Part shown: in pieces, positions 14,909 to 17,545 of the stretch
How positions within the stretch are numbered: the stretch's first letter is position 1
How the letters are laid out: each line of letters starts with the position of its first letter
Origin: Thermoanaerobaculia bacterium
GTDB lineage: Bacteria > Acidobacteriota > Thermoanaerobaculia > Multivoradales > JAHEKO01
DNA length: 64,000 nucleotides
Reading direction: 5' to 3'
Assembly (NCBI GenBank): GCA_041567315.1
Contig: JBFGCA010000002.1
Coordinates: forward strand, 8,055 to 72,054
The notes under the pieces: generated by a model
What the model saw: only the letters and a program-made list of their open reading frames with translations
Told to the model about the DNA's origin: nothing
Database searches by the model: none
Made by a program: the position numbers and the translations under genes

Positions 14909-17545
14909 TCAGGTAAGAGGAGCGGTCGGCTTGTCCAGCGGCCCGCGGCGAGGTCGGACGGCAATGGCGAGAAGAGTCGCCAGGGCAAGGAGCGACACGA
15001 CGCTGGCGGCGGCGAGGGGACGGCGGTCGATCCAGATCCGAACTTGGTGGGTGCCGGCAGACAGTGAGAGGCCAAGACGGTGGATGTTGGCGGCCTCCAG
15101 CGGCGCCGGGCGGCCGTTGACCATTGCGCGGTACGTGCCGAGGAAGGCGCGCTGCACGACCAGCGCCCCGGGCCGGTCGGCCACCACCTCCAGCTCGAGG
15201 TCGGTGGTCCCAGAGGCCAGAACCCGCACCTCGCCGGCCGGCCCCGGGCCAGGAGACCCGGCACCGCTCAGCCCCTCCACCGTCGAGATGTCGTCAGGCG
15301 CCACCGCCTGGGCGGGCCTCGCGCCAGGCGCCCCCGCTCCGCCCGGCTCTACCTGGAACACCCCTTCGCCCACCGGTGGCGCGGCGACCTCGCCGCAGCC
15401 GCCCGTCAGCCCTCTCCCGGTCTTACTTTCTGACTCGTTTTTCTGACCCGAGACCGGAAATACCGCCGTCGTCCACGGGTCGAAGCCCGGGGCGGTGATC
15501 CAGGTGAGGGCGGCGTTGAGGTGGGGGGCGCGCAGCACCTCCCCGACGAAGTGGACCTCGGGGAGGGCGGCGGGCAGGCGGTAGACCAGGATCGGGTCGC
15601 CGTCCGGCGGCTGGTGGACGTGCTCGAGGCGGGCGAGGTCGGCGGTCGAGGCCTCGAGCTCGCGGTCGAGCAGCAGCAGGTCGACCCCGGAGGCGGCGAG
15701 CAGGCGCAGGCGGGCCGCGTCGTCGAGGGCGGCGAACGACTGCGCAGTGGCCCGGGTGAGGAAGGCGTCCAGTCCCTCGGGCGAGGGGTGGAAGGCGTAC
15801 CGCCGTCCCCAGAGGATGCCGGCCGCCGGGTGGAGCTCGGCGAAGGCCCGCCGCTCGAGCCACAGCAGCCGGGCGTCGGGCTGGCCGGCGGCCGGCAGGC
15901 GCACCGAGCCGAAGAGCCCGCTCGCCGGCCCGTGGGCGACAAGCGCCGAGGCGGGGACCGCCGCCAGCAGCGCGGGCGGCTCGAGGTAGGGGGCCAGTTC
16001 GTCGGTGGCCAGCACCGGCCGCAGCAGGAAGAGCTGGAGACCGAGGTGGACCGGCAGCAGGGCGGCGAGCGCCGGACTCCCGAGCCGGCCTCCCCTCAAG
16101 CCGGTCCGGCGGCCGGCGCCGAGCCGCACCACGATCGCCAGCACGCCGAGCGCGGCGAGCGAGATCAGGCACAGGCCGGCCCAGCGGAGCCGCTCGGCCG
16201 CCGCCAGGCCGGGCGCGGCACCGGCCGGCAGCCACGGTCCCAGGGCCTCCTCGGCGGCCGCCGGGGCCAGGGTCAGGGCCAGCCAGGCCACGGCGTAGAG
16301 CACCGCCAGCAGACCCAGCGCGCGCCCCAGCGGCCGGCGGCCCGGACCGCGCAGCAGGCGCTGGAACCCGAGACCGCAGAGCAGGCTGCCGCCCACCGCC
16401 ACCAGCGGCCAGAACTTGACCGGCAGCCGCAGCAGGTCGGCGCCCGGCAGCGCCAGCAGCCAGCCCACCGCCGGGTTGTGCCGGCCGAGAGCCAGGAACA
16501 GCCCGGCCGCCGCCACCACCCACGCCCAGGCCGCCGCCCGCACCCGCGGCCGCCCCGCCGCCGCCACCAGCACCAGCGCCAGCAGCCCGGGATAGAGCGT
16601 CAGAAAGAGCGGCAGGTCGCCGCCGTGCTGGCGCCAACCCCAGAAGCCGAGATCCGGCCGGCCGAAGAGAAACGGCAGCAGCCACTCGGCGGCCGCCGCG
16701 GGCGGCCAGCTGGCGGCGGTGGCGGCGGCCGGCGAATAGCCCGCCACGGCGCGGAAGGAGAGCGGCAGGATGCGCGCGAACTCGACGATCTGCGGCACGG
16801 CAACCAGGGTGCCCACCATCGTGCCGGCCGCCAGTCGCGACCAGCCCGCCCGCCGCCAACCGTGCCGCGCGGCGGCCGCCGAGAGCGCCAGCACGAGCGC
16901 CACGACAGCGGTCATCGGGTCGCCGCCCAGCAGCATCAACGCCCACAGCACGGCCAGCGCCGCCCAGCCGCGACGCCACCCCCGCCCCCGCGCCCCGCCA
17001 GCGCCCAGCGCCGCGGCGGCCAGGGCCGGGGCCAGGGCGGCGCCGGCCACCAGGTTGTAGAGGTTGAGACTGGAGAGGAAATAACCGCTTCCCGCGTAGC
17101 AGACCCCGGCCGCCCAGGCGGCCTCGCGGCTGAGACCCCAGGCGCGCGCCAGCCAGAAGGCCGAGAACGGCGCCAGCAAGAGGTGCAGCCAGAAGTGGGC
17201 GTTGAGCGCCCAGAAGGGCGAGGCCACCAGGTAGAGCAGGTTGTCCGGATAGAGGGGGACGCTGTTGGGGTTGCCGAGCAGCGGCTGGCCGCCGTCGCGG
17301 TAGGGATCGACGAGCGCCGGCTCGCCGCTCCGCCAGGCCGCGGCCTGCACCCATTTCATCTCCAGGTGGGTGTTGAAGACGTCGCGCAGATAGAGGGTGC
17401 GGTCGCCCCCGGCCAGGGGCAGCGCGGCGACGCCGAGCAGCGCCAGGGTGGGCGCCACGTAGAGCAGCGCGAAGCGACGGCGGCGGCGAGCGGGCCCGGC
17501 CCGGCGCTGGCGTCTACGGCTCGGCTGGCCCTGCGGGCGACTCAT
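14909..17545 (-). CDS. large polytopic membrane protein, YfhO-like / GT-C-fold putative glycosyltransferase (paralog of 29994-32402)
   Basis: 878 aa from ATG 17545 (MSRPQGQ...); at least 12 predicted TM helices. Conserved first-loop motif DPYRDGGQPLLGNPNSVPLYPDNLLYL shared with the second paralog (GGQPLLSNPNYAAFYPPTWL). C-terminal about 250-aa soluble domain. Confidence 0.5.
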   Translation of the reverse strand: MSRPQGQPSRRRQRRAGPARRRRRFALLYVAPTLALLGVAALPLAGGDRTLYLRDVFNTHLEMKWVQAAAWRSGEPALVDPYRDGGQPLLGNPNSVPLYPDNLLYLVASPFWALNAHFWLHLLLAPFSAFWLARAWGLSREAAWAAGVCYAGSGYFLSSLNLYNLVAGAALAPALAAAALGAGGARGRGWRRGWAALAVLWALMLLGGDPMTAVVALVLALSAAAARHGWRRAGWSRLAAGTMVGTLVAVPQIVEFARILPLSFRAVAGYSPAAATAASWPPAAAAEWLLPFLFGRPDLGFWGWRQHGGDLPLFLTLYPGLLALVLVAAAGRPRVRAAAWAWVVAAAGLFLALGRHNPAVGWLLALPGADLLRLPVKFWPLVAVGGSLLCGLGFQRLLRGPGRRPLGRALGLLAVLYAVAWLALTLAPAAAEEALGPWLPAGAAPGLAAAERLRWAGLCLISLAALGVLAIVVRLGAGRRTGLRGGRLGSPALAALLPVHLGLQLFLLRPVLATDELAPYLEPPALLAAVPASALVAHGPASGLFGSVRLPAAGQPDARLLWLERRAFAELHPAAGILWGRRYAFHPSPEGLDAFLTRATAQSFAALDDAARLRLLAASGVDLLLLDRELEASTADLARLEHVHQPPDGDPILVYRLPAALPEVHFVGEVLRAPHLNAALTWITAPGFDPWTTAVFPVSGQKNESESKTGRGLTGGCGEVAAPPVGEGVFQVEPGGAGAPGARPAQAVAPDDISTVEGLSGAGSPGPGPAGEVRVLASGTTDLELEVVADRPGALVVQRAFLGTYRAMVNGRPAPLEAANIHRLGLSLSAGTHQVRIWIDRRPLAAASVVSLLALATLLAIAVRPRRGPLDKPTAPLT

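Follow-up and report, generated by a model that had tools for sequence, protein, structure and literature searches.

A 64,000-nt stretch of DNA from a Thermoanaerobaculia bacterium (Acidobacteriota; GenBank assembly GCA_041567315.1, contig JBFGCA010000002.1, positions 8,055 to 72,054 of the forward strand; hereafter the window) carries two genes, A and B, whose products are full-length homologs with the predicted fold of glycosyltransferase C (GT-C) enzymes and a YfhO-like layout. Gene A forms a conserved pair with a UbiA-family phosphoribosyltransferase gene, and gene B lies beside pilin and prepilin peptidase genes across its family. We put at roughly 0.5 the probability that A transfers a ribose-derived pentofuranose to a periplasmic acceptor and that B is a pilin O-glycosyltransferase. 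GT-C enzymes are hard to recognise by sequence, and those of the YfhO type have, to our knowledge, been studied to date in Firmicutes only. A and B stand for two large unannotated families, to each of which gene context offers a testable role.

Fold, signature and family membership of A and B

The original prediction, made by reading the sequence, was of two paralogous large membrane proteins, and both open reading frames were confirmed: gene A (14909-17545, minus strand) encodes 878 aa with a GT-C-fold, YfhO-like layout, and gene B (29994-32402, plus strand) encodes 802 aa of the same fold, from a divergent YfhO family and in an operon with pilin and prepilin peptidase genes. Third-position G+C of 0.92-0.95 supports both reading frames, in a window of 73% G+C whose best protein matches carry the label Thermoanaerobaculia. 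NCBI makes the same call for A on JBFISH010000160.1 of GCA_041608635.1; an alternative ATG lies at 17617. A and B are similar far beyond chance, with 37% identity over 368 aa in BLASTP (E 1e-25), and hhalign aligned the profile of 31 A orthologs to that of 33 B orthologs with probability 100 and E 6e-62 over 741 columns, the C-terminal domain among them.

The two proteins had also been predicted to share a GGQP-containing motif in the first loop. It translates as expected at both sites, as DGGQPLLGNPNSVPLYP in A (17246-17296, minus strand) and HGGQPLLSNPNYAAFYP in B (30192-30242, plus strand), and its core positions are invariant in the joint alignment of all 64 orthologs. Just past the first transmembrane (TM) helix, TM1, an Arg-Asp dyad is likewise present in 64/64 sequences (R54-D55 in A, 17381-17386, minus strand; R38-D39 in B, 30105-30110, plus strand). 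Invariant residues of the first loop (A/B numbering) are R54/R38, D55/D39, H60/H44, G85-G86/G68-G69, N92/N75 and P100/P83, and further on H121/H104, R134/R117, R265/R248, G354/G341 and R373/R361; the alignment has additional invariant positions, and Q87/Q70 and P93/P76 are kept in 63 of the 64. The signature common to both families can be written as RD, H, GGQP.L.NP and YP. In GT-C enzymes the proposed catalytic Asp comes after TM1, in the first loop (PMC11127046), and the position of R54-D55 in A agrees with this, making D55 in A and D39 in B candidate catalytic bases. Tandem duplicates of A type or B type are frequent among related loci (L021, L038, L040, L052, L064, L067-L069, L072, L079 and L081; L109, L138, L145 and L151), and L040 has a third, more divergent paralog at 8027-10294 with the motif variant GLGQPFRGNPN.

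AlphaFold (AF2) models of A (predicted local distance difference test score, pLDDT, 84.2) and B (pLDDT 89.3; predicted template modelling score 0.91) share one layout. TM1 leads into a first loop that holds a helix and the GGQP motif; then come about 12 more membrane helices, an alpha/beta plus beta-sandwich domain of ~270-330 aa and a last TM helix. The models thereby uphold the earlier description of 12 or more TM helices followed by a C-terminal periplasmic domain. In A, the last of the core helices ends at residue 512, the domain takes up residues ~514-840 with the beta-sandwich at its end (15026-16006, minus strand) and the last TM helix spans 842-863 (14957-15022, minus strand; hydropathy peak at 845-863); in B, the helices run to residue 496, the domain covers ~502-770 (31497-32303, plus strand) and the last TM helix 773-794 (32310-32375, plus strand). 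The domain of A contains a Gly/Pro/Ala-rich insertion of ~65 residues (701-766; 15248-15445, minus strand) modelled with pLDDT <50 and missing in most orthologs, which are mostly 770-800 aa long. The Arg-rich N- and C-termini of A and B suggest, by the positive-inside rule, that the first loop and the large domain face the periplasm.

In Foldseek searches AftD and ArnT were the top matches of both models (E 4.8e-8 and 2.1e-5, respectively, for B), with further matches to STT3B, AglB, AftA, PglB, ALG12, Pmt4, DPY19, Pmt2, ALG9, Pmt1, GPI-MT-I and AftB. All high-scoring matches are GT-C glycosyltransferases, in line with the GT-C relationship that the earlier reading had implied; identity to the Aft/Emb enzymes among them is 12-16%. 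The beta-sandwich of A gave local matches to glycoside-hydrolase accessory domains (ranks 12, 13 and 23). The models of both proteins have the superposable multi-pass membrane core of the GT-C superfamily and both sequences its conserved acidic residue in the first extracytoplasmic loop (D55 in A, D39 in B); as modelled, A and B have the GT-C fold.

How close the two are to YfhO depends on what is compared. B. subtilis YfhO has 13 TM helices, with a big extracytoplasmic domain between the final two (PMC5836110), and the published description is matched by both AF2 models (~13 TM helices, large domain between the last two), so that, at the level of the models, 'YfhO-like' is right for the fold and architecture of A and B. 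A scan against Pfam YfhO (PF09586; gathering threshold 28.5 bits), suggested as a check on the prediction, was positive for B orthologs but not for the window proteins themselves: B scored 22.6 bits (E 4.1e-5), under the threshold, and A had no PF09586 match, only a sub-threshold one to DUF2079. In the B family 30 of 33 members matched at E <= 0.01 (best 2.3e-10), and seven of ten inspected reached at least 28.5 bits. Just 4 of 31 A-family members matched at E <= 0.1, and a few match DUF2079 and PTPS_related of the GT-C clan. The B-family matches span just profile positions ~755-835, which correspond to the final beta strands and the terminal TM helix, the sole part of B matched by the profile, and miss the catalytic core and the GGQP motif; by these profile scores B is a divergent fringe of PF09586, matched at its C-terminal end alone. 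Neither A nor B matched an NCBIfam family, the A-family profile picked up only a chance match in the PDB (UndA, E 1.4), and tblastn of B against a plasmid collection gave no match. Homologs of A and B are annotated 'hypothetical protein' throughout, except for one source label repeating the Pfam name. The GT-C structural matches, the YfhO layout and the PF09586 matches of the B family together support the original description of A and B as YfhO-like GT-C membrane proteins.

Conserved gene contexts of A and B

The surroundings of A were compared in one representative genome per species for 80 species carrying an A ortholog, of which 66 had enough upstream sequence to judge pairing with UbiA. 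In the window, A is divergent, across ~70 bp, from a gene (17616-18488, plus strand) for a UbiA-family polyprenyl-phosphate phosphoribosyltransferase of the DPPRS/PPPRS type, which matches Pfam UbiA and the NCBIfam equivalog NF008977 (decaprenyl-phosphate phosphoribosyltransferase; 307.8 bits, cut-off 234). A UbiA homolog is the immediate divergent neighbour of A in ~60 of the 66 evaluable loci; in L020 an inserted gene separates the two, with UbiA at a distance of 3 kb, and it is absent from the examined stretch around A in L011, L025, L040, L043 and L054. As this pairing is constant and the remaining neighbourhood variable, the UbiA-A pair is a conserved unit. The original prediction had placed both genes next to pilus genes, which holds for B as a family trait but not for A, whose constant partner, the phosphoribosyltransferase gene, it had left unmentioned; we rejected a general description of A as a pilus gene, with A near pilin genes in roughly 1/8 of the 80 loci.

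Downstream of the UbiA gene in the window follows a gene for a PAP2_3 membrane protein (18497-19573, plus strand; Pfam PAP2_3, E 5.6e-24; start at 18497 by the 358-aa NCBI call, minimal start at 18581), a candidate 5-phosphoribosyl phosphatase and functional analog of Rv3807c. It is followed by a gene for a fused MFS/spermidine-synthase-like membrane protein (19524-21137, plus strand; NCBIfam NF037959, 213.6 bits), found beside UbiA/PAP2 in window-like loci; as the only transporter-like neighbour, this protein may be a flippase candidate, or may be unrelated. The gene order in the clade of the window is M20 peptidase, pilin, M20 peptidase, the gene at 24454-26199, (DegT aminotransferase), MFS/spermidine synthase, (PAP2) and UbiA, then A in divergent orientation and, beyond it, biotin carboxylase, biotin carboxyl carrier protein, GT9, LpxL, LpxK and KdtA. 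In other clades the UbiA-A pair stands amid genes for GT4 enzymes, GtrB-like GT2 enzymes with TM helices, LPG_synthase_TM and Bac_transf proteins and PMT_2-type GT-C enzymes. In one of these other clades (L023, L026, L030, L033, L041, L076 and L080) three GT-C genes flank UbiA. Their products are a PMT_2-type protein, the A ortholog and a PMT_2 protein of 767 aa that ends in a tetratricopeptide repeat (TPR) domain; this third protein matches the published architecture of the pilin arabinosyltransferase TfpW, and its gene adjoins A, not a pilin gene. The window itself has no GtrB-like GT2 (by tblastn), GT4 or PMT_2 gene, which leaves UbiA as the sole gene for donor synthesis in the vicinity. 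The genes for biotin carboxylase and biotin carboxyl carrier protein (12705-14773, minus strand) lie directly 3' of A on the same strand, an order kept in ~50 of the 80 loci and probably plain accC/accB synteny, though its conservation is striking.

For B we compared 78 metagenome loci with orthologs of 39-55% identity, 63 of them evaluable upstream and 48 downstream. Directly upstream of B is a gene for a pilin of 161-167 aa in 47 of 63 loci, an M20 peptidase gene, as in the window, in eight and a second B copy in two; directly downstream is a PilD gene (41/48). In the window the gene for a secreted M20 peptidase (28633-30009, plus strand; Pfam Peptidase_M20 and M20_dimer) ends with a stop that overlaps the B start by 16 nt, and the gene for the prepilin peptidase PilD (32406-33179, plus strand; Pfam A24_N_bact and Peptidase_A24) starts 3 nt past the B stop: B is translationally coupled between the two. 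After pilD come genes for a PilS-like kinase, minor pilins and PilY1. B is missing between M20 and PilD in L001, L010, L034, L047 and L079, all of which keep the M20-pilin-M20-pilD backbone. Absent from some backbones and preceded in most relatives by a pilin of a distinct second type, B behaves as a variable pilin-linked accessory cassette. The UbiA gene is 12 kb from B in the window and ~10 kb in L005 and L094.

The type IV pilin gene of the window (27973-28515, plus strand; N_methyl motif, GFTLIELL signal and ribosome-binding site), whose product is the candidate B acceptor, encodes type 1 of the two pilin types of the lineage and aligns with the pilins of A-anchored loci. Pilins of both types have a GAAAAG segment followed by a Ser/Thr/Asn-rich stretch, for which reason a contrast of Ser/Thr sites between pilins beside B and pilins without B was uninformative as a clue to the acceptor. 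A sigma-54-type promoter match with one mismatch to the pattern (TGGCACGTAACCTGCT, 27863-27878, plus strand) precedes the pilin gene, and a terminator-like hairpin with a 14-pair stem (10 G-C) and a T-rich tail follows it (28536-28568, plus strand). A second sigma-54-type match (TGGCAC-N5-TTGC, 35088-35103) lies just upstream of the minor-pilin cluster; 0.9 such matches are expected by chance in the whole window. The DNA nearby also encodes a PilS-like kinase (33211-34980) and, on the minus strand at 44637-46088, a sigma-54 activator. M20 peptidase genes stand on both sides of the pilin gene (26403-27752 and 28633-30009), the downstream one encoding a signal-peptide-like N-terminus, and the M20-pilin-M20 order is kept in nearly all related loci, A-anchored or B-anchored; we know of no function for peptidases beside pilins.

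Other genes of the window touch the same themes. The gene at 24454-26199 (minus strand) encodes a 581-aa multi-TM protein for which sequence searches of Pfam, NCBIfam and the PDB gave no match; it has the sequence PLDDGWIHLQF right past TM1, a GT-C-like DD motif, and may be another uncharacterised GT-C. In most loci this gene is conserved in divergent orientation to the M20-pilin genes, and it often precedes a DegT aminotransferase gene, which the window lacks. The gene at 22688-24457 (minus strand), not found in related loci, encodes a 589-aa multi-TM protein with a Pro/Ala/Thr-rich internal segment and a faint similarity to the putative glycosyltransferases LA_3751/LA_3752 (E 6e-8, far under the cut-off) and to PMT. 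We rejected these two proteins as paralogs, whether of A and B or of one another: they are not alike by BLASTP, and neither has a significant Pfam or PDB sequence match. Elsewhere, a second pilus or type II secretion-like set (1613-7005, minus strand) encodes a PilN-like protein, an MshEN-domain ATPase (3380-5023), a PilC/GspF-like protein (5091-6302) and a small Secretin_N protein, and is followed by a gene for an extracytoplasmic function (ECF) sigma factor (7604-8227).

Predicted roles and rival explanations

In the reading to which we give about even odds, the active site of A and B would be the periplasm-facing first loop after TM1, with its RD, H, GGQP.L.NP and YP elements, and the sugar would come from a polyprenyl-phosphate-linked donor, as the adjacent polyprenyl-phosphate phosphoribosyltransferase gene suggests. 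For A, the UbiA-type enzyme would make polyprenyl-phospho-ribose-5-phosphate from phosphoribosyl pyrophosphate, the adjacent PAP2 protein would strip the 5-phosphate, the lipid-linked ribofuranose (possibly an epimer, if an epimerase is encoded elsewhere) would be flipped to the periplasm, and A would move the pentofuranose onto a periplasmic acceptor. This chemistry is modelled on the mycobacterial arabinan, Pseudomonas pilin arabinosylation and Citrobacter GT136 pathways, and the gene pairing itself is observed. Since the window has no DprE1/DprE2 or other epimerase gene, ribose rather than arabinose is the default prediction for the donor, as polyprenyl-phospho-ribofuranose. Flanked by lipopolysaccharide (LPS) genes on one side and pilus genes on the other, A has acceptor candidates in both. 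For B, O-glycosylation of Ser/Thr residues of pilin is the most economical and most likely reading, given its position beside pilin and PilD genes, its cassette behaviour and the existence of YfhO-type O-glycosyltransferases in streptococci. B might use the same lipid-linked pentose, the UbiA gene being 12 kb away in the same conserved region.

Several observations weigh against these assignments. Catalytic activity of A and B is predicted from modelled fold and conservation, the Pfam tie to YfhO depends on the C-terminal 60-80 residues, and a pilin acceptor for B cannot be proved by gene order alone. The B of the window comes without the type-2 pilin that usually precedes B, and B is close to UbiA in some genomes only, with no UbiA within 10 kb of it in L003. 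A is near pilus genes in roughly one in eight of its loci, and lipid A/LPS-core genes also flank it. PAP2 is beside UbiA in a minority of loci only; Pfam scans found no DprE1/DprE2, other epimerase, or MATE or SMR/GtrA flippase among the confident window genes; and a GtrB-like GT2 with TM helices, an alternative source of a hexose donor, lies a few kb from A in ~35 of the 80 loci.

It is possible, if doubtful, that A and B decorate non-protein envelope glycans (LPS core/lipid A, an O-antigen-like polymer or an exopolysaccharide) and that the order of B and pilin has no functional tie. Genes for KdtA, LpxK, a lipid A acyltransferase and a GT9 heptosyltransferase are beside A in the window and in relatives, the UbiA-A pair has in many genomes the company that is usual in polysaccharide loci (genes for GT4, GT2, Bac_transf and PMT_2 proteins), the C-terminal beta-sandwich is similar to carbohydrate-binding accessory domains, and the characterised PPPRS-linked GT136 acts on O-antigen (PMC11127046), as ArnT does on lipid A and Firmicute YfhO on teichoic acid. 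However, B is kept between pilin and PilD across orthologs of only 40-50% identity, the start/stop overlaps suggest that B and PilD are co-translated, and if B had no functional tie to pilin, it would be hard to see why it comes and goes as a cassette together with a distinct pilin type. A further reading, in which A, B, the UbiA-type synthase and PAP2 form a single pilin pentofuranosylation system, with lipid-linked ribofuranose made in the cytoplasm and flipped to the periplasm, B attaching it to the type IV pilin and A extending or branching it, seems to us unlikely.

Quite unlikely, in our estimation, is that A works like YfhO/CsbB or Gtr with a polyprenyl-phospho-hexose from a GtrB-like GT2, UbiA serving other GT-C enzymes or the pairing being regulatory only. 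The GT2 enzymes near A in ~35/80 loci have C-terminal TM helices (Pfam Glycos_transf_2) and are often accompanied by an LPG_synthase_TM protein, Firmicute YfhO partners the GT2 enzyme CsbB (PMC5836110), and the PMT_2-type GT-C genes beside UbiA in several loci could be its true clients; yet UbiA adjoins A in ~90% of loci, as its immediate divergent neighbour, compared with ~45% for GT2, and no GtrB-like GT2 was found in the window by tblastn. Hardly credible is a role for A and/or B as a non-glycosyltransferase, such as a GT-C-shaped pilus-assembly accessory factor, a flippase or a polymer-export scaffold: glycosyltransferase activity is ascribed to both families by inference, and TfpW itself has been proposed to be multifunctional, translocation included (10.1101/2020.04.19.049825), but the structural neighbours of A and B are enzymes throughout, and two families at ~29% identity share an invariant set of Arg-Asp, His and Arg in the first periplasmic loop and adjacent helices, typical of a catalytic site.

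In other bacteria the glycosylation of pilin has effects on how the pilus functions, on susceptibility to phage and on surface properties. If A is a pentofuranose transferase and B a pilin O-glycosyltransferase, the recently defined pentofuranose-addition pathway would gain, with the A family, a new family of GT-C enzymes and a place in Acidobacteriota, a phylum with hardly explored envelope glycans, and the B family would represent a new type of enzyme that modifies pilin. The RD, H, GGQP.L.NP and YP signature provides a search pattern for more members, and residues for mutation.

Comparison with known systems

The YfhO family includes B. subtilis YfhO, which acts with N-acetylglucosamine on lipoteichoic acid, PgtC2 of S. 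pyogenes and S. pneumoniae, and PgfM1/PgfM2 of S. mutans, and its streptococcal members PgtC2 and PgfM1/2 are proven O-glycosyltransferases of exported proteins (PMC12041528). A and B have the ~13-TM layout of this family and would share its GT-C fold and extracytoplasmic action, including the glycosylation of Ser/Thr of exported proteins by some members. They differ in falling below the Pfam cut-off, in their diderm acidobacterial host, and in their genetic partners, which are a phosphoribosyltransferase gene for A and pilin/PilD genes for B, whereas a CsbB/GtrB-type GT2 operon partner was not found in the window by tblastn. A literature search returned no paper tying YfhO-type proteins to pilins, Thermoanaerobaculia or a phosphoribosyltransferase.

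The pairing of A with UbiA recalls the three-component Ribf/Xylf system of Citrobacter youngae, consisting of the PPPRS ORF15, the MATE flippase ORF14 and ORF12, the founding member of GT136 (Kelly et al., 2024; PMC11127046), in which a UbiA-type synthase is likewise coupled genetically to a GT-C enzyme with a C-terminal beta-rich periplasmic domain. Of the published logic of PPPRS, flippase and GT-C (PMC11127046), the synthase is present at the A locus by its NF008977 score and the GT-C by fold; the window genes scanned include no counterpart of the MATE (or SMR/GtrA) flippase. The candidate phosphatase at the A locus is separate, as in mycobacteria and Pseudomonas, and of PAP2 type, in contrast to the fused HAD domain of the Citrobacter system. 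ORF12 has 11 TM helices and ArnT as its nearest relative by sequence, while A is YfhO-like with a terminal TM helix and without an ArnT/PMT_2 Pfam match, GT136 being compared here by description only. As Kelly et al. had already proposed 'PPPRS next to a GT-C' as a search guide (PMC11127046), the genomic prediction made here is solid and testable but no surprise. The mycobacterial arabinan pathway (Rv3806c DPPRS, Rv3807c, DprE1/E2 and the GT-C enzymes AftA-D and EmbA-C) begins with two enzymes that are the same by family as UbiA and PAP2, Rv3807c belonging to the PAP2 superfamily (PMC11127046); A and B count AftD and AftA among their best matches by structure, and several GT-C genes cluster round UbiA in relatives. 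The window differs in having no DprE1/DprE2, in the 12-16% identity to Aft/Emb enzymes and in a different cell envelope.

For B the closest parallels are in Pseudomonas, where the tfpO/tfpW pilin glycosyltransferase genes adjoin pilA (10.1101/2020.04.19.049825). TfpW, the pilin D-arabinofuranosyltransferase of P. aeruginosa, and TfpO/PglL are, like the B family, encoded in a strain-variable cassette beside the major pilin, and TfpW has the GT-C fold and depends on a UbiA-type PPPRS. TfpW differs from B in its 11 TM helices, in the TPR domain at its C-terminal end and in the DDX motif of its first periplasmic loop; B has instead a beta-sandwich, a terminal TM helix and an RD dyad, and no TPR match was found for it. 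tfpW directly follows the major pilin gene; the pilin gene is directly upstream in 47 of the 63 evaluable B-family loci, and in the window an M20 gene stands between. The Wzy_C domain of TfpO/PglL was not detected in A or B (Pfam, E <= 1). Altogether, A and B would work like known classes, though neither fits cleanly into an existing family, be it YfhO, TfpW, TfpO/PglL or, by description, GT136. Were they to form the joint pilin pentofuranosylation system that we regard as unlikely, it would comprise the first YfhO-type pilin glycosyltransferase and the first ribofuranosylated pilus, and would add a third, independently evolved class of pilin glycosyltransferase to TfpO/PglL and TfpW.

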